Shown here piece after piece: positions 2,416 to 51,623 of a DNA stretch of 64,000 nt (position 1 is its first letter; each line of letters starts with the position of its first letter). Source of the DNA: Squalus acanthias. Its lineage: Eukaryota. The notes below the pieces were generated by a model. It did not search any database, had not been told where the DNA came from, and saw only the letters and a program-made list of their open reading frames with translations. The DNA lies in the NCBI GenBank assembly GCA_030390025.1, contig CM059432.1, positions 85,066,001 to 85,130,000 of the forward strand, in the 5' to 3' direction. The position numbers and the translations under genes were made by a program.

Positions 2416-3642
2416 ATGCAGACCTCAGATGAGGACAAAGATGACCAGCAACATCAACAGCAGCAGTGCCAGCAGCAGCACCAGTAGTACCAGCAGCACC
2501 AGCAGCTGCACCAGCAGCAGCAACAAGCTGCTGCTCACAAACCTGTAGCTCCACAGGAGAGAGGGAAGCAGTAGAGAGGTGCAGCTCGCAGGAGGCCATA
2601 CCTGGCACACACTGTCTACAGACAGAGGATAAGCTTCCTCAACATATCTGGACACCAGGGTCTCAGGAGGCTCTTGGTGTTGCATCAGGTGGTGGCAGAC
2701 ATTTGCAGGCTGCTGGAACAAGACTTGCTGCCAATTGGACTTGGTGGCCACACTTTACCAGAGGCTGTCAAAGTCACCACCGCCCTCACCTTTGTTGCCT
2801 CTGGATCCTTCCAGGGCTCTGCCGGAGACAGTTGCAGGATCTCACAGTCGACGGCCCACAAATACATAAGACAGGTGACTGATGGCTTCTTTGCCAGGGC
2901 CGCCAATTTTGTCAGCTTTGCCTGCGATAGCGCCAGTCAGAATGAGTGGGTGCTCGGGTTTGTGGCTCTAGCTGGCTTCCCACAGGTGCAGGGCATTATC
3001 GACTGCAAACATGGGGCAATTAAAGCACCCATAAATCACCCAGAAGTGTTTGTCAACCGCAAGGGCTTCCGCTCCATCAATGTGCAGCTGGTGTGCAACC
3101 ACAAAAAGATCTTTATGCAGGTGTGCACAAGATTCCCAGGCAGTTGCCATGATGCTTTCGTCCTGCGGCAGTCCACCCTCCCAAACGTCTTCACACCTGG
3201 AAGCAGAGTTACCAGCTGGGTGCTCAGAGACAAGGGATACCCACTTAAAACGTGGCTGATGGCACATCTCAGAAACCCGAGGAATGAGACTCAGGAACAC
3301 TACAATGAATGCCATTTGACCACCAGATGTGTCATCGAACAAGCGATTGGCATGCTGAAGATGCGCTTCAGGTGCCTGGACAGATCTGGAAGCGCCCTTC
3401 AGTATGCACCAGCCAGGGTCTCCAGAATGGTCGTGGTGTGCTGCGCTCTGCACAACATTGCCCAACAGCGAGGTTTAGACCTACAGGAGGAACAAGGCGC
3501 AGAGCACAGAGCCTCTTCAGAGGATTCCGAGGAGGAGGAGGTGGAAGACGAGGAGGCAGAAGGTGATGCGGGTAATGCACCACCAGCGACGCACATTGCC
3601 TCGGATGCCCGGGGTGCCCTCATTATTGTGAAGTTCACTTAG
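2416..3642 (+). pseudogene. Harbinger (HARBI1-like) DDE transposase; open 322-aa core at 2674-3642, Gln-rich N-terminus broken by TAG at 2485 and 2572
   Basis: Motifs GFPQVQGIIDCKH, NRKGFRSINVQLVC, PGSCHDAFV, DKGYPL, IEQAIGMLKMRFRCL, CCALHN, acidic tail. Confidence 0.92.
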
Positions 3643-3955
3643 GTTCCAACAGTGCACCCGTCTAACAACCACATGCAAAAGCCTCTTTGCCTTCCCCACC
3701 CCGCCCAATGCCACTAACACAAAGCAGTCCTGCAAACAACCAAGCCTTCCTTTCATAGCCCCCCATTGGTCACTGTCAATTCATGTCTTCCCATTCATCA
3801 TCACACAACTGAAAAGGCCACTTGCCAGCCAGCAAACAAGAATGGGCAAGACAGGAAAGTGGTGCAAAAGAATAATATTTATGTGCTTCAAATAGACAAC
3901 AGAAACTTAACAATCTAACAATGTGTTGCACACCTATGTACATACTCTTGTGCAA

Positions 3956-6400
3956 CTACGAGTCTTCATTCTTCCTTTTCCTAGCGCTTCTATGTGGTGC
4001 AACATCTATGACTTCAGCAGAGGTAGATGCAGGCTGGCCAGATCCCTGCACTGACTGTTGAGTTGTTCTTGGCCAACGTCCTCTTGGAGCCCGTGAGGGC
4101 CCCGTCAAAGACTGCTCCACCTGAACCTGTGCAATGGCAGATTCGGCCATCGGGACAATGGGTGAGAAGTGGAAGCACTTTGAGCTAAGTCCCCACTTCC
4201 ATGTCCCCTCTCACCATCATCCCTCTCATGGCCCAGCCGCACTTCCCTGCTAGCAATATGCTGGAGAACACTTTGCTACAGATCAGCGGGGCGATGAGAG
4301 GCCAAAGCTAAGGTATCATTCATCCTATTTAAGCTGGCATTCAGCGTGTGCAAGCTATTGTTGAAGGCCTGCATGCACTCATGTGATTGCCGTGTTTGAT
4401 GCTCCCTGCAGGTGGCCACTCATTCTGAAGAAGAAAACATCATCGCAACGGCCTTTAACATTATGTCACTCATGCTTGAGACAGACTCCTCCAATTTCTC
4501 CGTAATTGTGCGCAGTGCACTTACAACGCCTGCCAGTACATCACATATTCTCTGCTACTGCTCAATAAGTATCCTATACATCGACGGCCCCTGGAGTATA
4601 GCATCTGCGTCCAGCTGAACAGATCTTGGAGAGTCCTGTGCCCTCTGACGCGAACTCTCCACTACTGCCCCTGAATCCGCCATCTGCTCTTGCTCAATTG
4701 TGAAGTGCAAGTCACCATGTGAAAACCCAACTATCTCTATAGGGTTGAGAACCAGAGGACACAGATTTAAGGTGATTGGCAGAAGAACCAAAGGCGACAT
4801 GAGGAAAAACGTTTTTGCGCAGTGAGTGGTTAGGATCTGGAATGCACTGCCTGAAATTGTGGCTTTCAAAAGGGAATTAGATAAGTACCTGAAGGAAAAA
4901 AAGTTGCAGGGCTACAGGGAAAGGGTGTGGTTTGGGACTAGCTGAAGTGCTCTTGCAGAGAGACTGCATGGGCTCGACGGGCCGAATAGCCTCCTTCTGT
5001 GCTGTAATCATTCTATGATTCTATGATTCTATCTTGTCCCACCGAAGTTCGAGTATCTGAGCTGGTGCATGGTCTGTATAAGTCCTGCAACAATACACCC
5101 TTGAGGGAGTGAGTTCCTCTGATGCGTCTGCATCATCCTGTGTGACCTCGACCACCTCCTGCTGGAGGCATGAAGGCCCTATGGGAGATAAAAGACATGA
5201 ATGAGTACTGTCAAGGTAGGAATGCGTGAAGTTTTCATTATGTACGTGATCATACTTCAGTCGCTGTTGACATCAAGTCAACATGACTGAGTGTTGTATG
5301 CCATGTGGGTGCCTGATATTTACCCCTGTCACCAGCTAGTTGGCAGGCAGGCAGACAGTCCGATGGCCAGGCATGCCGAGACTCTGCTGATCTCCATTGT
5401 CTCCTCCTCTGCCCGTGTTAGTTGCGAGATGGCTAGAGGGCCGCCTCCAGTTCACTGTCTCTCCCTGGTGTTCTGTGCTTTCTTCTCCTGCCAGGAGAGA
5501 AAGAAGAGACCTATGAGTGAGAGTAATGGCATGTGTTCACCCGATGGCTGGATAGGATTTGTTGAGAGTGATTATGAGGGCTAGGCATGACATTGCATAA
5601 GGATGAAGGTGAATGTCAGTGGTGGATGGATAGATGGGGATGTGAGTAGGTGCATAGACAGAGAGGGATGGCTGCACCTGCAAGGTAAGTTGGTGTGAGG
5701 AATGATGACTAGAGTAGGCTTGAGAAGGCAGAATGAAGTGGTTAGGGTGATACGCACATCAGAATATAGGGCAATGTGCCATTGCTCTCACCTTTCTTGC
5801 CCTGCTTAGATCATTGAAGTGCTTCCTGCATTGGATCCAGGAGCATGGCTCCTGTTGCTGACCTCCTGGGCAACCTCCAACTACTCCTTCTTTGTGTCAC
5901 CAGCAGGCTTCTTCCTCCCGTCACTAGGGAACAGTATTTCCCTCCAGGCCCATACAACCCTGGAGTGTGAGGGGTAACTAGTGAGATGGGGATGTGATAA
6001 TGTAGATAGAGAGAGAGGGATGGGTGGAGGTGCAAGGTAAGTTGATGTGAGTAAGGATGTGCAGGGGTAGGGTAGGGAAGGCAGAGTGATGGGGATGTGA
6101 TGAGAGGCACAGCAGGATGAGGTTGAGTATGGCTTTGTACTAACATTTCGTATTCTAATGAGATCATTGAAAGGTTTGCGCCACTGCACCCAGGTCCTCC
6201 TGACCACATCCCTGCTTGTGCCCTCCTCTGCAATGTGCAACCAGGCTGTTTTGTTCTCCTGGGAGGTCTCTTCCGCCCATGGGAAGGGAAGAGGACCTCC
6301 CTGTGTGCTGTGACTCCCTCCATAAGCATATGAAGGGAGTCATTGGAGAGCCTGGGTGCAGCCCTGCACCTCTGTGCAGTGATTGTCAGTGTTTGCAGCA
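3956..6400 (-). pseudogene. Multi-exon Myb/SANT-like Harbinger ORF2 with two Myb-like exons, disrupted
   Basis: Myb motifs at ~6150-6370 (PRLSNDSLHML...RRTWVQWRKPFNDL) and ~5790-5975. Basic C-terminus HRSARKRK. Splice-like boundaries. CR1 insertion at 4736-5031. Confidence 0.75.
4736..5031 (+). mobile_element. CR1 LINE 3' fragment
   Basis: RTRGH...VVRIWNALP coding remnant and (ATTCTATG)n tail. Confidence 0.88.
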
Positions 6401-8689: not shown

Positions 8690-9079
8690 GCCTCCGATCC
8701 CCCTCACTCCTCTGACCCTTCCCGTGCTGCTCCTCTGGCCCACAATCCTCTTCGGACCACCCCACATCTTCCTCCGGCCCCCAATCATCTTCGGACCCCC
8801 CCCCCATCCTCCTCCAGCCCCCGATCTTCTTGAGGCTCCTGCCTGCTCCTCGATCTTCACCCAGCCTCCAACCCCACCCCCCCCAACCTTCACCCAGCCC
8901 AACCCTGCCCCCCCAATCTTCTCCCGGCCCCCACCGCCCCCGCACCGATATTCTCCCGGCCCAACCCTGACCCCTCGATCTTCTCCTGGCCCCAACCCCG
9001 CACCCCCCCCCGATCTTCTCCTGGCCCCCAACCACTCAATCTTCTCCCGTCCCCCGCTTCCCCACCCCAACCTTCTCCC
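8690..9079 (+). repeat. C-rich minisatellite (CCCCGATCTTCTCCCGGCCCC-like), left part
   Basis: Repeated ATCTTCTCC(C/T)GGCCCC units. Confidence 0.85.
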
Positions 9080-10200
9080 TGAAGGGATAATTACTAGTCC
9101 TAGCCCCTTTAGGGCTACCCTGGATCAGGCGTATTCCCCAGACGTTCACTTTCAACTAAAGTTTGAGGTAGCCGAATCCTAAAGATGCTTAATTGGGTCT
9201 AAAGGTCCAGACTATCTCTCCCTAAAGGAAAGGAACAACCTGAAGATGTTACCGTCCTCCAGATAGAACTTTTAATAAGTTTAGCTAGACTGTAACATTC
9301 CGGATATTATGAGGGTCCAGAAAACTCCCTCAGAATTCTGCAACTCCTCACCAAAGAGCGTACAGAGATTGAGTTCGCGAGTTTGATACAGAAGTATTAT
9401 GTGAGATCATTCTAAAAATATATAGATTTATTAAAGAACCGACATGTAATTACAGTAGGTGTTTCAATCGCAACATTAACAGTTCCAAAAAGAGTAAGCT
9501 TTTACAATCTTATTATCAGAGATCCTTATTCTCAAATCTTAACTTACTCCAGGATATCCACCAAAATCAAATACAGTACAATACCTTGATCCCTGAGGTA
9601 CAAAGAGTTGTAGACTTACAGAGCTTGCCTCTGAAGCCAAGAATCGCTTTGCCCCTTTACAGCGAGACTATCATCCCATTTGAAAGTTCAATATTTATAT
9701 CCTTTTTCAGTGGTATTTTCTTTGAAGTTTTCTGCTGATGTAAGTTAATTATCTCTAGTCATTTTTCTGCTGACCCCTGCTATTCTTACAGTCAGTTCAG
9801 CTGGTAGCAATGCAGACTCGTGTCTCTCCTTTAGGTGTTCAAAGCTAATCATAAAAAACAGTGTAACAGCAAGTGCATCTATTTGCTGTCATTCTTACCA
9901 AGGTCTATGTTTCTTAATTTTCTGTGTTTCTTTTCGAAGTGTAATTTAGGACACCTTAACAGGGTGTACCATTGTGTTCTTTCCAAAGCTTCAGACTTAA
10001 GGAGCTTCCAACCTCCTGTTTCAATAAGGTTATTGATTCAGTGTCAACAACTTATCTTATCTCAATAGCCTGAATGCTGTTAACAATACAGCTTTTCATA
10101 GTCAGGTTTCTAGATTTCCAGACCTAGTTTGTTATGTTTTAATAAGGCTAGAATTCTTTCATAGAATGGTGTATTTTTCTGAATATGGCTTATTCCTTCA
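9080..10200 (-). repeat. 3' LTR (~1121 bp) of foamy-like provirus
   Basis: Terminal inverted repeat TGAAGGAATAA...TTATCCCTTCA (10/11). Upstream polypurine tract AAGAGGGG (10212-10205). TATAAA ~9698-9693, GTAAGT ~9618-9613, AATAAA 9432-9427, all on the minus strand in U3-R-U5 order. Confidence 0.8.
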
Positions 10201-10639
10201 CACACCCCTCTTGACCAAAAAATGAACTTGAGCATCAAGACAGAGTTTGGTCAATGTTACTAATAAGTTTACAATAGCACATTAATTTCACGAGATTCAC
10301 AAAAGCCTAATCATGCGCTACATGAAAATTCCTCTTAAGTCATCCTAGGACAATGTTTTGCCTTATTTTAAATTGAACACAATTTAAAAGGATGATAGAT
10401 ACATTGTCATGCAATTAGTGAAACAACATGTACTTAGAATGTCCAATCGGCAGATGTATGTTCCGTAGAGGTGAGTTATTCATACGAGTCAAGGAGACGT
10501 CATTTGGAACTAGCTGAAGCTTGACATGCTGTTCCTTCGATCCAGCATGTAGACAGATTCTTGTTTTCGTAAAGGACTTGCCAGGCGCTCAGTTGATTCC
10601 TTCTTCATCCGCGGTGTTTTCCTCCTTTGTTGAAGTAAC

Positions 10640-13540
10640 TCATTGATCTTTCCTTGTTTCGGTTGTGGCTTTTTGCAAATCCAGATCTTCAGGCGTTGCC
10701 AAGCATCGTGTGGAAGAGTCGGCGACACTGACTGACTGACCGTCGTCAGTAGTTCGATCATATCCATTTTCTGTGTCGTGCTTCAAGCTGGGTCTTGAAA
10801 GACAGTGTACGACTGCACCTTGTATTATTCCTCCATTTCGGTATCCCGCAGGACATCTTTTGAGATTGTCTATGGAGACACTTTTAAGAATATGCTTCCC
10901 ATTCGGCTGATTAATATGTATTTTAACTGCTCTTTCATTAATAACAGAATGTATTTGAACAGGTTTTTTCCACTTCGGTCTTAAACCAGGTTTTTGCTCG
11001 AACTTCTTTTCCTGTACCCATTCTCCTGCTAGGGGTTGCCATGCTTTGTTTGTCAATTTTTTCTGCCTATTTGCCTCCCTTATCCTCTGATCAATTTGAT
11101 GAATCTCCTCTGTTACTTTTTTTTAAATCTAACTGTCGCTGTCGAGTCAAAGACTCAGAGAGTGTAGAGGCAATAAAAGAACTATGGGTAAGCGGTGTAT
11201 GCATCTCAACCCCATACATCAGACAATATGGAGTTTTAGGGGACACTGTCCCTGGTGCAGATGCGGGCACATTATTAAGTGATAGCTGCACCTCCGGAAG
11301 GATGGTGGTCCACTTATTTCCCCTGATTCTCAACAGTTTGACCAATAGCTTTATTACTTCCTGGTTTTTACGTTCCACCAGCCCCGCTGATTGCGGATGA
11401 CGTGGCGTGCTGTGCTCTAAGCCAATCCCCCTTTGTTCACAGTAGGCTTTGAAGACCTTGGAGACAAAGGCTCCGCCTTGATCGGAGTGTAAGATTTTGG
11501 GTGCACCAGCTACAGTAATTATGTCAGCATTGGCGAGTGCATTTTCCGAAACAATTTTTGTGGGGACCAGCCAGCAGAAGGAAGTGCATCCATCTACATA
11601 AACGAGAACATGTCTGTATCCCAAAGACGGGGGAAGTGGTCCAATAAAGTCAATAAAGAATTTTCCCATTGGCTCATCAGCTTTCACAGGAGCCAATGGT
11701 GGTGGCTTAATTAGTGATGACTTATTGGTTAAATAGCATGGTTTGCCACATATGTTTTACAGGCCTTAAGCATGCCTGGCCACCAATGTAAGGGGGTCAA
11801 TTTGCAGAATGTTGTTCTGGCACCACAATGTGCTTGACCTATGCCCTCGTGAGCTTCTTTTACAAGTTGTTCTCGTTTGTGTCTCGGGGGTACTTCTCGG
11901 TTTCCGTTGGGCAACTTAACTAGCACAATACCCGTAGGGGTTTCCGAGTAAAAGTACTTTGATGGATATCCTGGTGGATTCTCTTTTGTTGGGTCTAATA
12001 GCTGAATCAGTTCCTCATCCTGATTAGCTGCCCGTTCTGCCCTAGTGATTACACTAATATTGGCAGGCCCCTCTCGAGGGGGTGTCATGCAGACCGAACG
12101 TTTTGCTTGTTCGTCTGCAAGACTGTTTCCTTTTGAGTGTACTGTCCCAGTGGTATGCCCGTTTACATGAATCACCTGACAATTCTGTTTCTCCATTCTC
12201 GAACGGAGAATGTCTTCCCACAATGACTTATGTTTTATGGGTTTACCCTTATGATTGATAAAATTTGTTTGTTCCCAGAAAACCAGATCTTGGTTATATC
12301 CTTTTTTACAGTAGTCACTATCCGTACAGATTAGTATGGGTTTAATACGGTCTGCCTTTTCTAAAGCATACCGTAATGCTGCGGCTTCAGCATATTGTGC
12401 TCTCTTATGGCCAAGGGGTATGGACAGTAATTCTTCTGGATAAAAAGAATAGGAATCTCGAAAAGTCCCTACTACTATCCCCATCCCAGCTGAGGATTGT
12501 TGGGATGTCCCTTTTTTAATTGTCATTGAAGATCCATCACAGTAAATGACTTGATGGTACTCTGTAAGTGGTCTCATAGGTATTTGTCTGATTTCCTCCT
12601 CCGTATCATCATCCTCCATGATGGGGAGATGCTCTAAGTCCATTTCCAGGGAGAGGAATTTAAAAATGAGTGTAGGATCATTCAAGAACGATGCCCATTT
12701 ATCATATCGGATCTGGGTGGCTCTTTTTTCATCAGAGGCCATCCTCAATACTGATCTTAAATCGGGAATCTCAGTATAGATGGTAATGGGGTATTTCTCT
12801 TGAAGGGTTCGTGCCTTGATGAGGCATTGGACTACCATAGTCATGACCCTTTCTTTTTTAATGTACCTCCTTTCGACATTGGAAAAGTTATTAGAATGGA
12901 ACTGAATGGGCACTATGCTCTTTTCATTATAGAAAACTGCAACTGCCACTTTAGGTGATGACCTGAGATGAATATTGAGGGGAACTTGTAAGTCCCTCTG
13001 TTCCAGGTCTATGGCTTTTTGTACCTCTCGGCATAATTGTTGCTATTTTGAGTAATCGTCTGGTGAAAATATGAATGGTCCTTTTGCTGCTTCGCCCACT
13101 CTAGCATACAGGGGTGCTGAGAGCTCGGCAAAGGTTGGCGTAAAGGATCGAGCAAAATTCAGGAGTCCTAAACTTGCTTGCAGATTTTTCAGACTTTTAG
13201 GATATTGAATGGTGGCTAATTTTTCTTTATAGGATTGAGTTAATCCTCTACCGTTTCCAGTTATTCGCAGGCCCAGAAAATTTACCTCTTCCCTAACTAG
13301 CTGACTCTTTTTTATGTAGATTAAGTACCCAGCGGTTGTAAGTCTGGATAAAACGCTATCAATGGCTTTCAAGTGCTCTTGGAGATTGTCATGTGACAGA
13401 TATATATCGTCCACGTAAGAATTGACGTTAGGTAGGTCTTTTAAAAGGTCAATGATGTGGACTGAAAAGAGAACGGGACTGTTTTGAAATCCCTGGGGCA
13501 ATCTGGTCCAGCAGTACTGATAACCATCGGGTCCAGTCAC
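10640..13540 (-). pseudogene. pol: Endogenous foamy-virus-like pol (RT C-terminal half, tether, RNase H, integrase); 5'-truncated, one in-frame stop and about 2 frameshifts
   Basis: YCWTRLPQGFQNSP, YVDD. RNase H DGS/AQYAE/TDS/KPIKH/GNSLAD. IN GYPSKY, KFFIDFIGPLPPS, HSDQG-(D35E)-VERKN, LRPKWKKP, VSIDNLK. These are spumavirus-type motifs. Confidence 0.92.
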
Positions 13541-13830
13541 CCCCAATTTTTTCCCGGCCCCTGATCACCAATCTTCTCCCGGCCCCTGATCCCCAATCTT
13601 CTCCCGGCCCCTGATCCCCAATTTTCTCCCAGCCCCTGATCCCCAATCTTCTCCCAGCCCCTGATCCCCAATCTTCTCCCAGCCCCTGATCCTCGATCTT
13701 CTCCCAGCCCCTGACCCCCACCCCCCTGATCTTCTCCCGGCCCCTCACCCCCGATCTTCTCCTGGCCCCTGACCCCCAATCTTCTCCAAGTCCGACCCCT
13801 CGATCTTCTCCCGGCACGAGCCCCACACGA
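13541..13830 (+). repeat. C-rich minisatellite (~23-bp CCCCTGATCCCCAATCTTCTCCC(A/G)G), right part
   Basis: About ten tandem units directly visible. Confidence 0.9.
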
Positions 13831-14505
13831 TCCCTCCCTCCCTCCTCTGTGCGGCCTAGTGCCGCAGACCTACTTCAATCTGGCTGGCTGTGGGTGGGAA
13901 ACAGAGGCTTCACATTGAAATCAGGCCCTGCTGTTAAAGTCGGCAGGGCCTGCGGGAAACCCGTTCTCCGGGGTTTCCCTAGCGCCTCGGAACCCCCCAC
14001 CCCACTGCCCCCAACCCGAATTTCCCATTAAAAATCAGCCCATATTGTGCAATTTTGGCCATGATACTTAAACTGAAGGGTAATACTAGCACATGGTTCT
14101 TTTCAATTGTGATTTGGAAGTTTAAATATTAATTATATTTTGATTATAATGTTATTATGGTAATTTCATCGAATTACTTCCACTAAGCCACTGCTATCAA
14201 ATTTTAATGAAAGCATTGCTCTACCACTGCATGATCTACAAGGCATTCTTTACATACTTATTGTTCCAATCATGAATCTTGTGCTATCTTGAATTTCATT
14301 CATATTAAGTGCAAATTGCATGCGAGACACTTTTACATGACTTTCACATCTCACCGACTTGTACAATTTATGTAAGAAGCAAAAGAAAAATTTATGATGC
14401 AGGATCAGTCACTGAACCATGGAAACATTATCCATGACTTTTACGGATGGAAGAGTAATTCATTTCAGAGTCAGGATCAGAATTTTCTTTTAAATATAAA
14501 TCATT

Positions 14506-29782: not shown

Positions 29783-31675
29783 GGCCTAGAAATTCGTTTG
29801 CCCCCGAAAATGGGTGCAGGGATCGCGGTGCGCTAGGAACCCATGCCCATTCCGAGGACTGCAGGCAGCATGCAAACTTTGTGCTGCCTGGCCATTTGCG
29901 GGGTTGTAGCATTCAGCCCAGCGCGGAGCATGGGAGAGTCCGGCACCAACGTTGCACAGGGCTTTGCGCAGAGCTTGGAACCCATCTTTTCCAGCATGGA
30001 AGGGGTGGGCAGATCCATTAGTGCACTTGTGAACCCAACCATCATGCAGCGTCTGATGGCTGATGTCTCAGCTTCCATTGCAGCACAAGCACAAGCCACC
30101 CTGTGTCTGAGTGCTGCAGTGGAAGCTCAGACTTCTTTTATGCAAGCTCAGACTGTTCCCATGCAGACTCAGCTTGCTGCCACGCAGTGTGGAAATGAGC
30201 TTGCAGGGTGTCACAGCATTCCAGCAATCTGTCCTCCAACAGATGGCTAGGAATGCTGAGGCACTGCCCCGGGGGAGTGGCAGTGGCTCCACGGAGGATG
30301 AACCTGCTGTCCTCTGTCAGGATGACAGAATTCGTCCTCCCACCACTGTCATTCTGCCAGTGTCCTTGCTGTTGCCTGTTACCCAGCCTGCCCAGATTAC
30401 TGCCACCCATGCCGATGTGATGCAGTCCACAGCCAGGCCTTCAAGGCCCAGAGCTGCTCAAGGTCATCCTGCAAGCCCATCTGCAGTCTCCCCCACTGAA
30501 AGTCAGCAGCCTTCCACCAGCCATGCTGCAACCACTGGGACAGCACTGCACAGGAGCACTAGGTCAGGCAAAGGCACACGGAAGACAATCATTAAGGGAA
30601 TGCACAAGGGTGATTGGTTGACTTTGTTAGGTTATATTGGATGGATTAATGGATAAAGTTGGATCGGAATGTTTCTTTTGTGGTGGCTTTTATTTCAACA
30701 TTATGGCCAAGAGGAAGCTGTGATGTTCAGTAATAGAGGGAAGGTAAGGTGTTGGACTATTGTTGAATGGGGAATTTGGGTTGCGTTAACTCAAACCGCA
30801 GTCGAATGAGTCGATCACAGACAACCTAGGCAGAATAATGCTGTCTGGGTTGCCTCCTCCCTTCCACTTCCTCCTTTTCCACTTCCTCCTCTTCCACTTC
30901 CTCCTCCTTCGCTTCCGCTGCCTCCTCGTTCTCAGCTGATCGCTGTATCCCTGGAGGCAAGGGCTGTGTTCCCATGATGGTGAGGTTGTGGAGCATGCAG
31001 CAGACCACGACAAATCTTGAGACACGTTCTGGTGAGTACTGCTGGTCTCCTCCAGAGCAGTGCAGGCAGCGGAAGAGTTGTTTAAGGACACCAATGGTCT
31101 GCTTTATGATGTTTTGTGTGCCAGCATGGCTCTCATTGTAAGCATGTTGTCGACGTTTGGTTGGGTTGCGGAGCGGAGTCATGAGCCAGGTGGTCAGCGG
31201 ATAGCCCTTGTCACCCAGTAGCCACCTCTGGTTTGTCTTGGTGGCTCAAAGACTGAGGGAACAGCGGACTAGCGCAGAATGAAATCATCATGACTGCTGC
31301 CAGAATACCGGTCATTCACCATCATGATGTGCTGAGCATTGTCGCACACCAACTGCACATTCAGTGAATGGTAACCTTTGCGGTTGCGCTACATCTCAGT
31401 ATTTAGATGCGGTGCCCGCAAAGCCATGTGCATGCAGTTGATGGCACCCTGCACCATGGGGAAGCCTGCTATCCTGGCAAAGCCACATGCACGATCTGCC
31501 TGCTTCTCTCTGGTTAGATAGAAGACAATGAAGTCCCATCTCCTGGCATGAAGAGCGTCTGTCACCTTATTATGCAGCAGTGGATGGTGAACTGGGTGAT
31601 GTTACAGATGTCGCCTGCTCAAACCTCGAACGATCCCGACACGAAGAAATTCAGGGCAATGGTCACCTTCACAGC
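29783..31675 (-). mobile_element. Harbinger fragment (Myb-gene 3' part +, transposase -), interrupted by Gypsy at 31676
   Basis: TPLRNP...[11 protein letters not shown]...CCMLHNL on minus. HRSTRSGKG tail on plus. TIR-like GGCCTAGAAATT at 29783. Confidence 0.85.
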
Positions 31676-32060: not shown

Positions 32061-35000
32061 ATGGCCGCACCTACAGGATTCATCGGAAGCCTCGGCATGT
32101 ATGACTGAACTCATGAACCATTCAGTTCTTATGTTGAGTGGATGCAAATGTTTTTTAGGGCCAATAACATTATTGAGACTGAAGAAGCAGATGAGAATGT
32201 TCAAGCTCAAAATAAAGTCATTCGTGAATGGAAGAAAGCAATTTTTCGAACAGAGATCGGGCCAGATGTCTACAGAACGTTGACAAACCTACTCGCGCCA
32301 GAGAAAGTGAAGGATGCATCGTTTGAAGACATTGTCGAGAAACTCGAGGACCATTTCGACCCAAAGCTGTTAGAAATAGCAGAGAACTATAAGTTTGCTA
32401 CCAGAAACCAAAAACAAAGTGAAACCATCAGTGAGTACATTGTAGCTCTTAAGAACCTGTCTTTGCATTGTAACTTCGGCACATTTTTGGATCGTGCATT
32501 GCAAGATAAGTTTGTGTGTGGACTGGTGGATGAGCGCCCACAGTCCAAGTTACTGAACACACCGAACCTAACGTTTGACATAGCATGCAAAATTGCCCTA
32601 TCTATGGAGATGGCGTCTAAGAATGCTAGGGAACCCCGTCCAACTCAAGTGACTAGTGCAGCTGAGGTCTACAGTCACAAAGCCACCGTCAAACCTAAAG
32701 CTGTGAGACCGAGTCAAAAGCATGTCGGTGAGAGCAGTTCAGTGAACTGTTATCGCTGCAATAGAAATCACTCACCACAGTCCTGCCAATACAGAAATGT
32801 GAAGTGTTTTCACTGCCAGAAGCAAGGCCATATTTCAACAGCTTGCAGAGCTAGATCTAAAGCAGGAAGTAAGAACCATTCTAGTGGCAATGCAAATCAG
32901 CAACAACAAAAGGGAGGAGTTCACAATATTGAAGTGAACACACCTGATGTTGAAGAACTAGGCATCTACAGTATCTATGCCACTAATGGCAATGCTAGCA
33001 GTCATGAGAAAGACTTGCATACAAAACGTTAGATCAACGAGCAATGTATTGATATGTGTATCAACATGGCGGCGGACTGCTCTATCATGAGTAAGGACAC
33101 ATATGAGTGTAAGTTTAATCAAATACCACTTACAAAGAGTACCGTAGAGTTAAAAACCTACTCCGGAGAAATCCTAGAGACATGTGAACAAATGGAATGT
33201 ACAGTTCAACACAATGGCCAGTCAGTAAAGCTGCCTATTATTGTAGTGAGCTACAACAACAGGCCAACTCTCACGGGCAAAGACTGGTTGAGAAAGTTAA
33301 AACTAAACTGGAAAAACATCTTCAGTGTAGATGCTTCAAAGAAGCGACTCGACACAATGCTGAACAAGTACAAAAGCACATTCACAGACAGTTATGAGGG
33401 CATCACTGGGTATGATGCACATATCCGCATCAAGTCCAACATGAAGCCTGACTATTGTAAGGCAAGGCCAGTCCCCTATACGTTGAAAAGTCGGGTGGAG
33501 GAAGAGCTAGCGAAGCTCAGAAAGAACTGAGTGCTAGTAAAAATTGACAAAAGTGAATGGGCTACCCTGATTGTGGTAGTGCCCAAAGCAGAAAAAACTG
33601 TACGCTTGTACAGTGACTACAAAGTTACTATCAACGAAGCAGTTGACGATGAGCAGTACCCGTTACCTACATCGCAAGATTTGTATGTAGCACTCTCTCG
33701 GTCAAAGGTTTTCTCCAAGCTTGACCTGTCGCACGCTTAGGCTCAGCTGAATGTTGACAAAGAGAGTCGACAGTATCTCACCATCAACACACACAAGGGA
33801 CTGTACTCATACACCAAGCTCCGTATGGTGTAAAGTCCTCCCCCAAAATCTTGCAAGCTACGATGGATAAGATTTTGCAAGGAGTTCCAAATTGCTTATG
33901 CAATCAAGATGATGTGCTTATCGCAACAAGCAGCGAGGAAGAAAATCTAGAAGTGTTAGAGTTAGTGCTTCAAAGGTTAAATTCCCACAATGACAAATTG
34001 AAAAGGATCAAATGTGCTTTTGTGTTGCCCAAGGTTTTGTACCTTGGTCTGAAAGTTGAAGCAAATGGCTTGCAACCAGTGAAGGAAAAAGTTGATGCTG
34101 TTCTCAATGCTCCAAAGCCACAGAACGTGTCTGAGTTAAGATATTTCCTTGGAATGGTTCAGTACTATGTACATTTCTTACCTGAGTTAGTGACCATGTT
34201 AGCTCCATTGCACGAGCTCCTCAAGAAAGATGTTCAGTGGAAGTGGATGATAGCGCAACAGGAAGCTTATGACACTTATAAAAGAAGTCTCTCTAGCGAT
34301 GCTCTACTTGTGCACTACGACACAGAGTGTGAGCATAAGTTAGCATGTGATGCTTCCAGCTATGGTGTGGGAGTCGTCATAAGCCACGTAATGGATGATG
34401 GCCAAAAGAAACCAATTGCGTTCGCATCGCGAACCCTCACAAAGAGCGAACGAAACTATGCACAAATTGAAAAGGAGGCACTTGCCATAGTGTTTGGAAT
34501 CAAGAAATTTCAACAGTTCCTGATCAGCAGAAAGTTTACCCTGATAACTGATCACAAACTGCTCCTAGCAATCTTGGGGCCCAAATCTGACATCCCTGCA
34601 ATGGCCGCATGAAGAATGCAACGTTGAGCAGTGTTGTTTTCACAATATGACTACACGATTGAATATCGCACTTCAAAGCAGATGCCTTGTCCAGGTTGCT
34701 ACATGAGGACTCATGTGTTGGGAGTGAAGGTGAGATTTTCACGCTAGGTGCAGTTGACAAAGACTGTGAATGCAACCGATAGTGCAGATGAGACTCAAAA
34801 GGACTCAGTACAGAAAAGAGTGTATGAAAACACCTTGAATGGGTGGACTGATCAGTGTATGGAGACAGAATTGAAACCATTCCATAACCGTCGTACTGAA
34901 TTGTCTTGTGAGCAAGGTTGTATCAAGTGGGGAAACAGAGTGGTTGTACCTACTTCTTTGAGAGATAGAATCCTGGCTGAAATTCATACTGAACATCCAG

Positions 35001-36110
35001 GGATAGTCAGTATGAAAACAATTGCAAGAAGCTTTGTTTACTGGCCTGGATTGGACAGTGATCTTGAATCACTTGACAGCAAATGCAGCATTTGCCAAAA
35101 TTGCAGAAACAAACCACCTAAAACTCCACAACAACCCTAGTCATGGCCAAGTAGACCTTTTCAAAGAGTACATGTAGACTTCTGTGAGAAAGCAAATGAT
35201 TATTTTCTGGTACTTGTAGATAGTCACTCAAAGTGGATTGAAGCGAAACACATGGGTTCAAATACTACAACTGAACGTACCATAGATGAGTTGAGGTCTA
35301 TCTTCGCATGTCATGGCTTACCTGAAGAGCTTGTTTCTGAAAATGGCCCTCAGTTCTGTTCTGTTCTATTCCAAGAATTCATGAAACGGAACGGTATCAA
35401 ACACACTCTCGTTCCACCATATCATCCAGCTTCAAACGGAGCAGCCGAAAGGTCAGTCAGAATAGTAAAAGAAGCTCTCAAAAAGCAAGTGTTGCAGGGT
35501 TGTTCGGGACTCAGCATGAAGAAACATGGTAGATTACTTGCTGAAGTACAGAGCTACTTCGCACACTACAACTGGATATACCCCAGCAGATCTCTTGATG
35601 AAGAGGAGATTGAGAACATGATTGAGTCTTGTTCAACCAAATTTAGCCTCAAGAGTTGAACAGAAACAGTTGAGTCAGAAACGTTATTATGACAGCAATC
35701 AGAAAGAACGCAGTTTCAGGCAAAACGAATGTGTTCAGGTTCTCAGTCCCCCCGGCAAGTCGAGTTCACACAATTGGGATATAGGAACCATAGTAGAGGT
35801 TGGTGGAACCAGGAGATATTTGGTTGAAATTGATGACAACATCCAAAGTGTTCATGTAGATCAAATGATCTCTGCTAGAGATGAACCAAGACATGATCTT
35901 GAACCACTTGATCATGAACACATACATGAGTTTGACTCAGTACAAACTTCAGAAACTGAAGTACCAGGTTCAAATAAGTCTGAGATAGAAACACGATCAT
36001 CTTTGAGTTCGGAACCAAAACAAAACAGCCTGAAAACTGTTTCAACACCAAAACCTTCTTAAAGGAGATCAGGAAGGCTCCACAAACCTGTTATTAAACT
36101 GGATTTGTAG
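32061..36110 (+). pseudogene. Gypsy gag-pol with multiple stops and frameshifts
   Basis: Zn knuckle CFHCQKQGHISTAC, RT FSKLDL and NQDD, RH CDASSYG and YAQIEKEALA, IN HPGI..CSIC, ENGPQF, HPASNGAAERSV. Confidence 0.9.
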
Positions 36111-44739: not shown

Positions 44740-46770
44740 CCATTTTTGGCAGGTTGATAGTGCTGCCATTGCCTGCGCCTGCTGCAGAAATGGAAATTAT
44801 GCAGATCGTGACGTCAATGAGTGGGCAACGCTCATTTGACGCACGATCTGCCGTTTTAGCCGTCGCCGCTCCACTTGCTGCCCTCTCTTAATCACGACCA
44901 GCTGACCAAGCATTCAGCAGCTGGAAGGAGACTCCAGCAGTGATACTTAAAGGGATCATCATCAACAACTTGCAGCTGACATGGTTTCTCAGTTTGACTG
45001 GCTCTGTGTACCTTTCTGCAACTCTTGCAGCTTTCTAAACTTGTTGAAAGTTCCTGATGTGACAGGGAGTGTTGGTGTAACCTTCATTTTTATTTAAAGG
45101 CTTCTACTCACACCACTTGCTCATAGTCATGGGTCCTCTACTTGCAGTCCCCCTCGCGCTCAAGTATCTTCGGGGAGGGAGCGGAGTCAGCGAGAAGAAA
45201 AGAAGATGCGCACAGAGGGAAGAGGAGGAGGGCCAGGAGGGCTCTCAACAGGAGGCCTTACCCACCTAGAGTCTTCTGAGAGCACTTCTCTTATCTCCAC
45301 TTAAGTGAGGAGCAGTGTACTAGGAAGCTCCGCTTCACCAAGGAGGTGGTCACAGAACTCCGCCACCTCCTGCAACCAGACCTGCGGCCTCAGAGCAGGG
45401 TGACCACAGCTTTCCCAGTAGCCCTCAAGGTCACCGGGACCTCAATTTTTCCGCCAGTGGAATCTTCCAGTCTGCAACAGGAGACATAGCTAACATCTCC
45501 CAGTTCGCCGTCCATCACGGCATCTGAGAGGTCACACAGGCTCTTGACTCCAGGAGAAGAGACTACACTGTCTTTTCTCTGAAAAGGGAGAGGCAGGACG
45601 AGCGCATGTGTGGCTTTGGCAGGATATCGAGCTTCTCCATGGGCCAGGGCGCCATCGACTACACACACGTGGTTTTGCAGGCACCATATACCAACCCTGA
45701 GATCTTCTGTAACAGCAAAGGCTACCACTCACTTAATGTGCAGTTGTTGTGTGACCACACCCAACGATTCATGATGGTGAATGCCCGGTATCCTGGCAGC
45801 ATTCATGATGCCTTCATCCTGTACCAGCAATCTTCCAGCCACCACATCAAATCCCTCCGCAACCCTACCACTCGTGCCCAGCATTCATATAATGACAGCC
45901 ATACTGCCACCAGGGACATCATCGAGCAGACCATCGGTGTGCTCAAGCAACGGTTCCGCTGCCTTGACCTATCGAGAGGAGCCCTCCAGTACTCACCAGA
46001 GCGGGTGTCCCATTTCGTGGTGGTCTACTGCATGCTCCACAATTTGGCCATCATGAGGGCCCAGCCCTTGCCACCAGGGATTGTGGGACCACCTCAGGAG
46101 GAGGAGGAGGGAGAGGAGGAGGAGGAAGAGGAAGAGGATGAGGACGAGGAGGGAGGGCGGAGGAAGGCAGCAAATCCCCGTTCCAGACGGTTGTCCGTGA
46201 ACGCCTCATCAGACTCTGATTCTAGTAATGAAACCCCAGATTCCCGTTGCTCACCACTTCCCCATCAGACCATCCCTCTGTCACGGAATATTAAAACATC
46301 CTCCTGGGCACAAAGCTGAAATGAGAGCCACCACAAAATACACATTACAAACAAAAATCATAAATTTATCCGAATCCAATCAACATTACACTATCAACTA
46401 ATCACCCTTGCGCATTCCCTTAGTGCCTGTCATTTGTGTGCCTTTACCTACTCTAATGCTCCTACTCAATGCTTCCCCAGTGGCTGCAGCATGGCTGGTG
46501 GAAGGCTGCTGACTCTCAGTGGGGGAGACTACAGATGGCCTTGCAGGATGACCTTGACTAGCTGTGGACCTAGAAGGCCTGGCTTTAGATTGCACCACCT
46601 CGGCATGGGCGACAGCAGTCTGGGCTGGCTGGCTGATAGGCAATGACCGAGAGGCAGTGGTGGGAGTAGGAATGCTGCCATTCTGAGAGAGGACAGCAGG
46701 TTCTTGCTCCACAGAACCACTGCCACTTCCCCGGGAGGACAGATTGCTGGCCCACTGCGACACCCTGCAA
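44740..46770 (+). mobile_element. Harbinger fragment (degenerate transposase +, Myb-gene tail -)
   Basis: [50 protein letters not shown]. Confidence 0.85.
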
Positions 46771-48735
46771 GAACATAAGAACATAAGAATTAGAGCAGGC
46801 CTAGGCCATATGGCCCCTTGAGCCTGCTCCGCCATTCAATAAGATCATGGCTGATCTTCAACCTCAACTCCACTTTCCCGCTGGATCTCCATATCCCTTG
46901 ATTCCCCTAGAGTCCAAAATCTATCTATCTCAGCCTTGAATATACACAATGACTCAGCATCCATAGCCCTTTGGTGTAGAGAATTCCAAAGATTCACAAC
47001 CTTCCAAGTGAAGAAATTCATCCTCATCTCAATCTTAAATGGCCGACCCCTTATCCTGAGACTCTGCCCCCTAGTGCTAGACTCACCAGCCAGGGGAAAG
47101 AATCTCTCAGCATCTACCCTGTCAATCCCTCAGAATCTTATATGTTTCAATGAGATCACCTCGCATTCTTCTAACTCCAGAGAGTATAGACCCAATCTAC
47201 TCAATCACTCCTCATAGGACAACCCTATCAACCCAGGGGTCAATCTAGTGAACCTTCATTGCACCACCTCTAACCAAAGCCCTGTACAATTGTAGTAAGA
47301 CTTCATTGCTCTTGTACTCCAACCCCCTTGCAATAAAGGTCAACATGCCATTGGTCTTCCTAATTGCTTGCTGTACCTGCATGCTAACTTTTTGTGTTTC
47401 CTGTACGAGGACAGCTAAATCTCTCTGAACACCAACATTTAATAGTCTCTCACCATTTAAAAAATATTCTATTTTTCTATTAACATAAGAACATAAGAAA
47501 TAGGAGCAGGAGTAGGCCAATTGGCCCCTCGAGTCTGCTCCGCCATTCAATAAGATCATGGCTGATCTGATCCTAACCGCCAATCTACTATCACAGAACC
47601 ATCTCCTGAACCTAACAGAATTGGACACACGAAATAGGAGCAGGATCAGGCTACACGGCCCCTGGGCCCGCTACGCTACCCACAGGGCCATGACCGATCC
47701 GAACCTAGACTCATGTCCAAAATCCTGCCCGCTCCCCGTAACCCTTAATTCCCTTTACTTCTAGGAAACTGTCTATTTCTGTTTTAAATTTATGTAATGA
47801 TGCAGCTTCTACAGCTTTTTGGGGCAGCATATTCCATGGACCTACCACCCTCTGAGTGAAGTAGTTCCTTCTCATCTCAGTTTTGAAAGAGCAGCCCCTT
47901 ATTCTAAGACTATGCCCCCTAGTTCTAGTTTCACCCATCATCGGGAACATCCTCCCCGCATCCACCCGATCCAACCCCTTCACAATCTTATATGTTTCAA
48001 TAAGATCGCCTCTCATTCTTCTGAACTCCAATGAGTAGAGTCCCAATCTACCCAACCTCTCCTCATATGTCCATCCCCTCATCCCCGGGATTAACCGAGT
48101 GAACCTTCTTTGTACTGACTCGAGAGCAAGTATGTCTTTTCTTAAGTATGGACACCAAAACTGTATGCAGTATTCCAGGTGCGGTCTCACCAATACCTTG
48201 TACAACTGAAGCAATACCTCCCTATTTTTATATTCTATCCCCCTAGCAATGAAAGCCAACATTCCATTGGCCTTCTTAATCACTTGCTGCACCTGCATAC
48301 TAACCTTTTGAGTTTCGTGCACCAGGACCCCCAGATCCCTTTGTACTTCTATACTTTCCAATTTCTTGCCATTAAGATAATAACTTGCTCTACTATTTTT
48401 CCTGCCAAAGTGCATAACCTCACACTTTCCAGTATTGTATTCCATCTGCCAAATCTCTGCCCACTTACTTAGCCTGTCTATGTCCCCTTGCAGATTTTTT
48501 ATGTCCTCCTCACTCACTACTTTCCCGCCCATCTTAGTATCATCTGCAAACTTTGATATGTTACACTCGGTCCCCTCCTCCAAATCGTTAATATAGATTG
48601 TAAAGAGTTGGGGACCCAGCACTGACCCCTGCGGAACACCACTAGAAACATAGAAACATAGAACAGTACAGCACAGTACAGGCCCTTCGGCCCTCGATGT
48701 TGTGCCGAGCATTGTCCGAGACCAAGATCAAGCTA

Positions 48736-51620
48736 TCACATCCCTATCACTCTGGTGTGCTCCATGTGCTTATCCAATAACCGCTTGAAAGTTCCTAAAG
48801 TGTCCGACTCCACTATCACAGCAGGCAGTCCATTCCACACCCCAACCACTCTCTGAGTAAAGAATCTACCTCGGACATCCCTTCTATATCTCCCCCCATG
48901 CACCTTATAGTTATGCCCCCTTGTAACAGCTGCCTCTACCCGAGGAAATAGTCTCTGAACATCCACTCTATCTATCCCCCTCATCATCTTATAAACCTCT
49001 ATTAAGTCGCCTCTCATCCTCCTCCGCTCTAAAGAGAAAAGCCCCAACTCCCTCAATCTTTCCTCATAAGACCTCCCCCCCAAACCAGGCAGCATCCTGG
49101 TAAATCTCCTTTGCACTCTTTCCAATGCTTCCACGTCCTTCCTATAGTGAGGTGACCAGAACTGCACACAATATTCCAAATGTGGTCTCACCAAGGTCCT
49201 GTACAGTTGCAGCATAACCTCACAGTTCTTAAACTCAAACCCTCTGTTAATAAACGCCAACACACCATAGGCCTTCTTTACTGCTCTATCCACTTGAGTG
49301 GCAACCTTCAGAGATCTGTGGATATGAACCCCCAGATCCCTCTGCTCCTCCACGTTCCTCATAACCCTGCCGTTGACCCTGTAATCCTTATTCAAATTTG
49401 CCCTACCAAAATGAATCACCTCGCACTTATCAGGGTTAAATTCCATCTGCCATTTTTCGGCCCAGCTCTGCATCCTATCAATGTCTCTTTGCAGTCTACA
49501 ACAGCCCTCCTCCTCATCCACTGCTCCACCAATCTTGGTGTCATCAGCAAATTTACTGATCCACCCTTCAGTCCCCTCCTCCAAGTCATTGATAAAAATC
49601 ACAAACAGCAGAGGACCCAGCACCGACCCCTGTGGCACACCGCTGGTAACTGGTCTCCAGTCCGAAAATGTTCCATCCACCACCACCCTCTGCCTTCTAT
49701 GAGATAGCCAGTTACTTATCCAATCGGCCAAATTTCCCTCTATCCCACAACTCCTTACTTTCTTCATGAGCCGACCATGGGGAACCTTATCAAACGCCTT
49801 ACTAAAATCCATGTATACGACATCAACTGCTCTACCTTCATCTACACACTTAGTTACCTCCTCAAAGAATTCAATCAAATTTGTTAGGCAAGACTTACCC
49901 TTCACGAATCCGTGTTGACTATCCCTGATTAAGTTGCCCCTTTCCAAATGGTCATAAATCCTATCCCTCAGGACCTTTTCCATTATCTTACCAACCACCA
50001 AAGTAAGACTAACCGGCCTATAATTACCAGGGTCATTTCTATTTCCTTTCTTGAAGAGAGGAACAACATTCGCCACTCTCCAGTCCTCTGGCACCATTCC
50101 CGTGGACAGTGAGGACCCAAAGATCAAAGCCAGAGGCTCTGCAATCTCCTCCCTTGCCTCCCAAAGAATCCTAGGATATATCCCATCTGGCCCAGGGGAC
50201 GTATCGACCCTCAGGTTCTTCAAAATTGCTAAAACATCTTCCCTCAGAACATCTACCACCTCCAGCCTATCCACCTTTATCACACTCTCATCCTCAAGAA
50301 CATGGCCCCTCTCCTCGGTGAACACTGACGAAAAGTATTCATTCATCACCTCTCCTATCTCTTCTGACTCCATGCACAAGTTCCCACTACTGTCCTTGAC
50401 CGGCCCTACCCTCACCCTGGTCATTCTTTTATTTCTCACATAAGAGTAAAAGGCCTTGGGGTTTTTCTTGATCCGACCCACCTAGGACTTCTCATGCCCC
50501 CTCCTAGCTCTCCTAAGCTCTTTTTTTAGCTCATTCCTTGCTACCTTGTACCCTTCAATCGACCCAACTGAACCTTGTTTTCTCATCCTTACATACGCTT
50601 CCTTTTTCCTCTTGACTAGACATCCAACCTCTTTTGTGAACCATGGTTCTCTCACTCGGCCATTTCCTCCCTGCCTGACAGGGACATACCTATCAAGGAC
50701 ACGCAGTAATTGCTCCATGAAAAAGCTCCACTTTTCGTTTGTGCCTTTCCCTGATAGTTTCTGTTCCCATCTTATACTCCCTAATTCTTGCCTAATCGCA
50801 TCATAATTACCCCTCCCCCAATTATAAACCCTGCCCTGCCGTATGGCCCTATCCCTCTCCATTGCAATAGTGAAAGTTACCGAATTGTGGTCACTATCTC
50901 CAAAGTGCTCTCCCACATACAAATCAAACACTTGGCCCGGTTCATTACCCAGTACCAAATCCAACGTGGCCCCAGCTCTTGTCGGCCTATCCACATATTG
51001 TGTCAGGAAACCCTCCTGCACACACTGTGCAAAAACTATCCCATCCGAACTGTTTGACCTATAAAGGTTCCAATCAATATTTGGAAAGTTGAAGTCACCC
51101 ATGACAACTACTCTGTGACCTCCACACCTATTCATAATCTGCTTTGCAATTTCTTCCTCCACATCTCTATTACTATTTGGGGGCCTGTAGAAAACTCCTA
51201 ACAACGTGACCGCTCCTTTCCTATTTCTAACTTCAGCCCATATTACCTCAGACGGCAGATCCCCCTCGAACTGCCTTTCTGCCGCTGTTAAACTATCCTT
51301 GATTAACAATGCTACTCCTCCACCTTTCTTACCAACTTCCCTACTCTTACTGAAACATCTATACCCCGGAACTTCCAACAACCATTCCTGTCCCTGTTCT
51401 AACCATGTCTCCGTAATGGCCACCACATCGTAGTCTCAAGTACCAATCCACGCTCCAAGTTCTCCTACCTTATTCCGGATGCTCCTTGCATTGAAGTAGA
51501 CACACTTCAAGCCATCTTCCTGTCTGCCGGTACATTCCTGCGACCTTGATACCCTCCTCAGTACCTCCCTACACTCACCACTGGCTCCTGGACTACAGCC
51601 CTTTTTCCCATCCCCCTGAC
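48736..51620 (-). pseudogene. CR1 ORF2 (APE endonuclease + RT), single frame with two premature stops (51436, 50482)
   Basis: YFNARSI, ITETWL, GDFNFP, SDHN, PGPDG, YRPVSL, GVPQGSVLGP, FADD. The three ORF segments share one frame. Confidence 0.93.
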
Positions 51621-51623
51621 AAA

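Follow-up and report, generated by a model that had tools for sequence, protein, structure and literature searches.

Genome analysis of a 64,000-nt stretch of Squalus acanthias DNA (assembly GCA_030390025.1, contig CM059432.1, positions 85,066,001 to 85,130,000; hereafter, the window) showed the presence of a 5'-truncated foamy provirus on the minus strand at positions 13540–9080, termed below the window copy. The endogenous retrovirus (ERV) family to which it belongs is almost certainly a foamy one, and the following history is proposed for it, with a probability of about 0.6 for the explanation as a whole. A foamy virus with full env would have become endogenous in the germ line of a likely shark ancestor, after which env would have been lost stepwise, with later spread as a retrotransposon inside cells. 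Stripped-down forms are predicted to have ridden along in helper particles, the Gag and Pol of env-less helpers presumably reverse-transcribing and reintegrating their RNAs inside germ cells. The integrase region would have been retained as an RNA element equivalent to the second cis-acting sequence (CAS-II) of foamy viruses, and readthrough would have yielded Pol as part of Gag-Pol. Endogenous foamy viruses are already on record from cartilaginous fish; the history of the family is the new part.

Structure matches, Pol identity, foamy Pfam families and the reverse transcriptase (RT) tree all agree with the foamy placement suggested by an earlier note made from the letters of this DNA. In comparison with solved structures, the integrase core of the window copy matched the integrase of prototype foamy virus (PFV) at 4e-53 (best non-foamy integrase, 1e-7) and its tether-RNase H segment matched foamy Pol at 2e-53 (best non-foamy chain, 3e-7), foamy proteins being favoured by more than 40 orders of magnitude. 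Pol of the family is 37–39% identical to simian foamy Pol over 91–93% of the query, with E of 1e-202 or better and the next match at 2e-87. Gag is represented by the Gag_FV_central domain (2.5e-12 and 1e-13; PDB 5m1h, 0.0025), and the CCHC pattern of a Cys-His box was absent from Gag in the one copy scanned. The protease at the N-terminus of Pol matches Spuma_A9PTase at 6e-6 and 9e-6, above the cut-off. The foamy Env profile PF03408 gave 11 matches at six loci (gp130, 7e-13), and the Env leader carries a hydrophobic helix near residue 110–135.

In the RT tree, for which 27 of 44 reference proteins were used, the family falls in the foamy clade (98/98), apart from Gypsy and other ERV rows. It belongs to an inner clade with mammalian, newt and catshark rows, the Callorhinchus protein standing outside (95/89), and its sister is the Logan protein P0039 (93/83). 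RT identity amounts to 50–52% with mammalian foamy RT, 43% with the Callorhinchus protein and 41% with newt proteins. The integrase tree, from which one short row and five rows without a match were left out, agrees with weaker support (clades 92/92 and 86/95), and P0039 is sister to the family here also; both phylogenies had been proposed in the earlier note as a check on the placement. The trees are without coelacanth, tuatara, named teleost foamy-like ERV (FLERV) or lokiretrovirus rows. Assignment to Ty3/Gypsy or to a non-foamy ERV was rejected, as these form separate clades and a second RNase H is present; frog proteins of a non-foamy branch fall outside the foamy clade. The viral-contig search gave no relative, and a further search gave only three proteins, all of them short and distant. 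The catshark foamy-type protein (P0072; GCB66461, Scyliorhinus torazame) is 41% identical to the family; its gene model fuses an RT/tether of foamy type with the PR/SET domain of a PRDM protein, representing either an annotation chimera or a captured exon.

A search of the 3.71-Gb genome for fuller copies with gag and env, likewise proposed earlier, was successful. Complete copies of about 8.7 kb with the organization LTR-gag-pol-LTR (LTR, long terminal repeat) were found, as well as six loci with long env. All 150 integrase-core matches scored are 85–100% identical, and the matches fall on most large contigs; the first ten copies fetched are all without env, and each is broken somewhere. LTRs of the family run from TG to CA. 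Exact 4-bp target duplications were found in nine of ten scorable copies, the tenth having one mismatch. The primer-binding site (PBS) pairs with the 3' end of tRNA-Lys(CTT) over 14 nt in four of four loci, and a polypurine tract (PPT) ending in GGGTG is the top variant (26 of 48). Large arrays of the tRNA-Lys 3'-end motif were observed on contigs G000:C21 and C26, with 245 matches genome-wide.

Motif counts with up to two mismatches (control motif, 0 in each case) gave at least 291 copies for the env junction, 95 matches for the junction of deleted form A, 67 for that of form B, six of which overlap A, and 205 for the gag-pol junction; the env-only motif gave three (controls, 0). The PPT motif gave 298 matches against seven for its control. 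The LTR-end motif has 2,751 exact matches; since about 4,100 LTRs are estimated genome-wide from the rate of exact matches in a sample (64 of 95), most LTRs are likely solo. The earlier note had called foamy-like ERVs rare and this lineage relatively young. The former is not supported, as this one genome has 291 or more internal copies and 2,751 exact LTR ends, numbers that also run against the published view of foamy fossils as extremely rare (PMC8922424; this and the other papers given by PMC number are cited for the available part of their text). The latter is contradicted by LTR pairs 1.3–6.6% apart across the family and by two deletion forms common to four organisms. At the shark rate of 0.5e-9 per site per year assumed in PMC10699275, this divergence corresponds, uncorrected, to about 13–66 Myr.

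Side observations on the LTRs include tandem proviruses with one LTR in common (L105/L106, G000:C1:44679566-44696742) and strong sub-family variation with internal duplications in U3 (window 10202–9700 and LTRs of other copies). LTRs of env-bearing copies match env-less U3 in patches only, at about 78%; promoter remodelling after env loss is possible.

Long env was detected by profile search at six loci, a number that is a floor, and all six belong to the family of the window copy. The common env deletion, present in at least 291 copies, begins about 30 nt past the pol stop, just ahead of the membrane helix of the leader and about as far 5' as pol permits. Inner env of 250–300 nt was retained at two of 20 PPT-anchored loci, which were picked as having no listed env-junction match, irrespective of integrase; the window copy retains about 30 nt. 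Because some loci keep inner-env remnants of different length, env appears to have been lost stepwise. A distance tree of copies (75 of 86 used) separates 69 env-less rows from six env-bearing rows with 91.5% bootstrap, with star-like distances near 5% among copies. Singleton changes are neutral (omega 0.87–1.09), and shared variants show omega of 0.23–0.58. In the RNase H-integrase region, full env-less copies differ from env-bearing ones by 15 synonymous and nine nonsynonymous changes, about 2.9 nonsynonymous per synonymous being expected. These ratios indicate that pol stayed under purifying selection while env eroded.

Since env eroded stepwise while pol was so maintained, the env-less copies quite probably spread by intracellular retrotransposition, judging from counts and ages; primate foamy genomes are able to retrotranspose inside cells (PMC3705263). 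Spread by reinfection, with Env borrowed from the few env-bearing proviruses or from circulating virus, is unlikely, although several points speak for it. LTR divergence in env-bearing copies (3.1–5.6%, four pairs) overlaps that of env-less ones (1.3–6.6%), which leaves room for a supply of Env in trans. Env is under purifying selection among the env-bearing copies, with singletons at 44:30 and 88:43 nonsynonymous to synonymous against a neutral ratio of about 2.8, and foamy particles need the Env leader for cell exit (PMC7828637). A point against the proposed history as a whole is that omega of shared variants in full copies is significant in some regions only (p 0.005–0.53). Against reinfection, however, stand the six env loci compared with at least 291 env-less copies. 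The divergence in full env-less copies is 1.3–4.0% (eight pairs), and the youngest env-less pairs (1.3%, 1.4% and 1.8%) postdate every env-bearing pair (at least 3.1%); for the most part, the derived alleles of full env-less copies do not occur in env-bearing ones. Host segmental duplication as the source of the copy number is highly improbable: a few loci do share flanks or pair at 100%, but differing 4-bp duplications at ten of ten scored loci largely refute it, and the star-like distances and the presence of matches on most large contigs also argue against it.

Over half of the env-less copies are forms without most of gag, protease and RT. The form names A–E and the reference positions given below are those of this study, the reference being one natural copy (L039/L040). 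In a sample of 60 copies, drawn from 178 exact env-junction matches, 20 belong to form A and 14 to form B, while 12 keep gag or RT and 14 were not classed. Form A joins the first 116 nt of gag, and form B the first 58 nt, to the start of RNase H, both keeping about 2 kb of 3' pol. Splicing as the source of these two junctions was rejected, since there is no GT at their left ends. Of the 20 copies examined whose gag-pol junction has TGG, most belong to form C, in which inner gag is deleted; some copies of this type carry a further deletion of RT (form D) and of RNase H (form E). A recurrent out-of-frame RT deletion (reference 3921–4284) was also observed in L142, L200 and L202, two of which keep gag from its start. 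Six loci (G000:C273, C782, C2649, C3270, C3631) match the A and B junction motifs 18 nt apart, possibly representing an A/B recombinant spread by duplication.

Amplification of the deleted forms is evident from LTR pairs and 4-bp target duplications of their own: form A to about 95 copies and form B to about 67, in addition to C, D and E. Median LTR-pair divergence is 3.4% in form A (15 pairs) and 5.1% in form B (eight pairs). Forms B and C were present in all four runs from four organisms and form D in three of them, while the joint of form A was not among the 14 of 122 joints listed in those runs; deletion forms common to four organisms offer dated markers. The leader, at least the first 58–116 nt of gag and the complete integrase region are present in all amplified forms. 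Form E and L202 have a cut or missing RNase H, and no recurrent deletion reaches integrase.

Foamy genomes strictly need CAS-I (R, U5, PBS and the first 200 nt of gag) and CAS-II (about 1.8 kb of 3' pol), and foamy vectors are built on these two elements (PMC5035957). The deleted forms are predicted to be helper-dependent, and on balance the retained integrase region is best read as a cis RNA element equivalent to CAS-II, probably kept not for its protein. Old and new alleles occur together in form A copies as mosaics, which would be expected if these were packaged along with helpers. Variants in integrase that are private to one form, namely, shared within one deleted form and nearly absent elsewhere, are distributed as neutral changes (synonymous:nonsynonymous:stop of 2:10:1 in form A, 3:4:0 in B and 6:13:5 in D).

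The deleted forms might instead keep integrase because they make it, either as an in-frame Gag-integrase fusion acting in cis or with the unbroken frame shielding the RNA from decay. Junctions A, B, C, D and E are indeed in frame, as are three single-copy ones. Five of seven recurrent junctions in frame correspond to p of about 0.045, calculated by hand at 1/3 each, which hints at a role of translation; in form C, moreover, TGG stands in place of the gag stop, and synonymous changes prevail among its protease-RT variants (11 against four nonsynonymous). Nevertheless, retention for the protein is rather improbable: variants private to forms A, B, C and D look neutral in integrase and include stops, an integrase insertion recurs in four of nine D copies, two recurrent deletions are out of frame, and microhomology at junctions can favour in-frame joins. 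Because selection on its protease-RT persists, form C may have provided Pol itself while taking capsid from elsewhere.

Still more doubtful is that the shared layout is unselected and reflects template switching at a small number of microhomologies close to where RNase H starts, together with sampling that favours integrase. Junction A lies in a patch of gag/RNase H similarity, and two of the samples had integrase or the env junction as their anchor. However, the right breakpoints differ (reference 4881, 4890, 4967, 4987, 5107 and 5525), with no recurrent one entering integrase, and the PPT count of 298 fits the env-junction count of 291. In the PPT-anchored sample, integrase was kept at 16 of 20 loci, that is, at 16 of 17 informative ones, three being hidden by insertions and one, a single copy, lacking it.

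This single-copy locus is among the points that count against retention of the integrase region as a CAS-II equivalent. The numbers of private variants are low, and some loci of form D are duplicates, one flank being common to L182 and L183. A pure cis-RNA model would not predict that the five most frequent deletions all preserve the frame, as they do, and forms A and B have no supported clades in the distance tree. A perfect central PPT was not found in the window copy, where the nearest approach, a purine run in integrase (window 11434), is imperfect. Given Gag-Pol expression, the part of CAS-II that serves Pol encapsidation would not be needed, so the match to CAS-II is one of position, equivalence in function being presumed.

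All copies read have gag continuing into pol in the same frame, with a single codon between the two. Among 100 listed of the 205 junction matches, this codon, scored by eye, is TGA in 71, TGG in 23, TGC in four and TAA in two; CGA does not occur among them, and decay of a CpG as the origin of TGA was rejected on this ground. TGG as the ancestral codon was not adopted either: one env-bearing copy has TGG and one TGA, and the copies with TGG belong for the most part to form C or D. No ATG is present ahead of the DTG active site of protease in all copies read. Because gag and pol share one frame across TGA without an ATG for pol, Pol was likely made as Gag-Pol by TGA readthrough, unlike Pol of mammalian foamy viruses, which is produced from spliced RNA with its own start (PMC7828637, PMC8278194). 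Spliced RNA, with a start codon from an upstream exon or a non-ATG start, is the somewhat unlikely alternative; exogenous foamy viruses regularly express Pol in this way (PMC7828637), and fish foamy-like ERVs were described with independent gag and pol (PMC5210030). In addition to the single frame with one stop, the missing ATG and the absence of CGA, it is opposed by the nearest relative found, P0039, which is a single Gag-Pol-like frame of 1,687 residues with protease after about 520 residues.

If UGA readthrough to Gag-Pol was still the source of Pol in this lineage, the cis element would be older than Gag-independent Pol expression. It is therefore suggested, tentatively and with less confidence than the readings above, that a shark foamy virus turned retrotransposon repeatedly yielded natural foamy vectors, and that the cis element in the integrase gene goes back to the shark–mammal split of foamy viruses and predates Gag-independent Pol. 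Separate expression of Pol and a central cis element by which genome and Pol are loaded are the defining traits of foamy viruses (PMC7828637); a shark lineage with gag and pol in frame, its RT nearer to that of mammalian foamy viruses than the chimaera RT is, would order the origin of those traits. A natural deletion series sparing the integrase region would map the cis element without building a virus, and, if the suggestion is true, the vector requirement for the leader and 3' pol stretches would be very old. The pattern of env-less superspreaders would also be extended to foamy viruses.

The window copy is represented by an RT fragment, tether, RNase H, integrase, env stub, PPT and 3' LTR, with Pfam domains RVT_1, RT_RNaseH, RNase_H, Integrase_H2C2, rve and SH3_11. 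The bounds given in the earlier note, 9080..13540, were exact: homology to other copies begins at 13539, the 5' LTR, gag, protease and RT N-terminus being missing, and the 3' LTR closes in CA at 9080. The C-terminal half of RT (13043..13540, minus strand, as are all segments of the provirus; RVT_1, 7e-18) carries the reported YVDD motif in open reading frame (ORF) 13564–13043 and closes at an in-frame stop. The tether, a degenerate RNase H, is followed, as claimed, by a retroviral-type RNase H and then by the N-terminal extension and zinc domain of integrase (11729..13042; Pfam RT_RNaseH 3.8e-8, RNase_H 9.9e-20; foamy Pol 1.6e-53; PFV integrase 7e-9), with RNase H at about 12550–12095 and the extension and zinc domain at about 11890–11741; GYPSKY is present in ORF 13042–11729. 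The integrase catalytic core (11091..11756; rve, 2e-10; PFV integrase, 4e-53) contains the blocks KFFIDFIGPLPPSLGY, HSDQG and HPQSAGLVERKN, all in ORF 11756–11091, and direct counting gave the exact D-D(35)-E spacing, with 35 residues from D to E. The C-terminal SH3 domain and pol tail (10589..11122; SH3_11, 1e-8; translations of eight other copies) contain LRPKWKKP and VSIDNLK in ORF 11122–10640. As to damage, about two frameshifts and one stop had been noted; the frameshifts were found at both ends of the core (gaps near 11741 and 11118), but there are two stops, near 13043 and near 10640. The latter removes the last approximately 17 codons of pol, the family stop lying near 10590, and a short in-frame gap is present near 11527.

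The env stub (10836–10528), PPT and LTR extend the earlier account. The first approximately 92 codons of the leader peptide (10561..10836) overlap pol, are 84–86% identical to the env start of four env-bearing copies and 79% to that of a fifth, and are cut about 30 nt past the pol stop, ahead of the membrane helix; the ORF at the env start of env-bearing copies matches Foamy_virus_ENV. A relic of the transmembrane region of env of about 30 nt (10528..10561) lies between two deletions and matches at 88% inside env of one of the six env-bearing copies; longer relics occur at two other loci. The 3' untranslated stretch (10203..10527), without an accessory ORF, closes in the PPT with a GGGTG border (10213–10203) and is followed by the 3' LTR of 1,123 nt (9080..10202), which has TG...CA and inverted ends, TATA near 9699 and AATAAA near 9432. 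The 5' deletion ends in a 25-nt minisatellite array of a host repeat (13541..13833; repeat families D1 and D3), and a minisatellite of the same family lies below the LTR (8835..9069; D3); a colinear copy of both flanks exists at one other locus. Because both ends of the provirus adjoin the same minisatellite family, it was likely inserted into one host repeat and truncated afterwards.

Other elements were found in the window. A near-complete CR1-type long interspersed element (47711–52490, minus strand) has an RT frame of 581 codons, the best eukaryote-named matches of which, among 120 listed, are two sharks at 78% and 76%, in line with the cartilaginous-fish host proposed earlier; birds, turtles and a ray show 40–56% in the same set. 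Two close matches labelled as bacterial proteins are probably contamination. A decayed Ty3/Gypsy element (32109–36062, plus strand) contains gag with a zinc knuckle, RT, a single RNase H and integrase, and is placed outside the foamy clade by its integrase. ORFs at 2575–3642 (plus), 45528–46319 (plus) and 30826–31245 (minus) resemble what we take to be Harbinger-type transposases.

In comparison with Spumaretrovirinae (prototype, simian and feline), the family has the same order protease-RT-tether-RNase H-integrase with an A9-type protease, the same foamy Gag central domain without a Cys-His box, and foamy Env with a long leader overlapping pol. The PBS for tRNA-Lys(CTT) (tRNA-Lys1,2), the GGGTG border of the PPT and the 4-bp duplication are also the same, with RT 50–52% identical. 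In contrast to the exogenous members, in which pol has a separate frame and its own start, gag and pol share one frame across TGA without a pol ATG; most copies are without env, and a perfect central PPT is absent from the window copy. A tas/bet-type accessory ORF and internal TATA were not found in the approximately 560 nt between the env end and the LTR in the four env-bearing copies scanned, all decayed. The WxxW budding motif is not present in the Env leader, which has two tryptophans six residues apart instead. By the title of a paper by Wang, Chen and Cui (2023; PMC9972966), a cartilaginous fish endogenous foamy virus (CFEFV) has been reported. It is reportedly from sharks and rays, in several lineages, and the present family may be one of these.

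Foamy-related elements of cartilaginous fish also include ERV-Spuma.0-Sca (PMC10699275) and ERVs of Callorhinchus milii (PMC5512871). In the small-spotted catshark, 293 such elements were reported, ERV-Spuma.0-Sca grouping with teleost AciFLERV/AliFLERV (PMC10699275); the C. milii RT (XP_007889123), 43% identical, branches outside the clade of the family and mammalian viruses (95/89). ERV-Spuma-Spu of tuatara and CoeEFV of coelacanth are high-copy endogenous foamy viruses as well (PMC6669660). According to the available text of the same source, the tuatara element is without an accessory gene, neither element has an internal promoter, and reintegration was proposed; the 165 tuatara elements have env in the described structure, whereas the shark family is mostly env-less, and neither env loss nor vector-like derivatives are mentioned in that text. 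Trans-complementation has been proposed for teleost foamy elements. A literature search, with few subscription papers and no supplements, gave no env-less or non-autonomous endogenous foamy family and no in-frame gag-pol in one.

Env-less or non-autonomous ERVs are exemplified by ERV-L, IAP, MusD/ETn and VL30, the dependent forms of which are, to our knowledge, not known to need a 3' pol stretch. The family shares with such elements the loss of env together with gain in copy number, while those are orthoretrovirus-like or ERV-L. For env-less superspreaders, env loss with copy gain, retrotransposition in cis and complementation in trans have been described (PMC8922424). The deleted forms have the same leader and gag start, approximately 1.8-kb stretch of 3' pol, PPT and LTR as minimal foamy vectors with CAS-I, CAS-II and CAS-III (PMC5035957), differing in being natural, in having full LTRs and in that the function of the kept stretch is presumptive. 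The in-frame arrangement of gag and pol across TGA is the same in XtERV-S, a class III ERV of Xenopus, which is not foamy-like and carries a class I env (PMC8278194).

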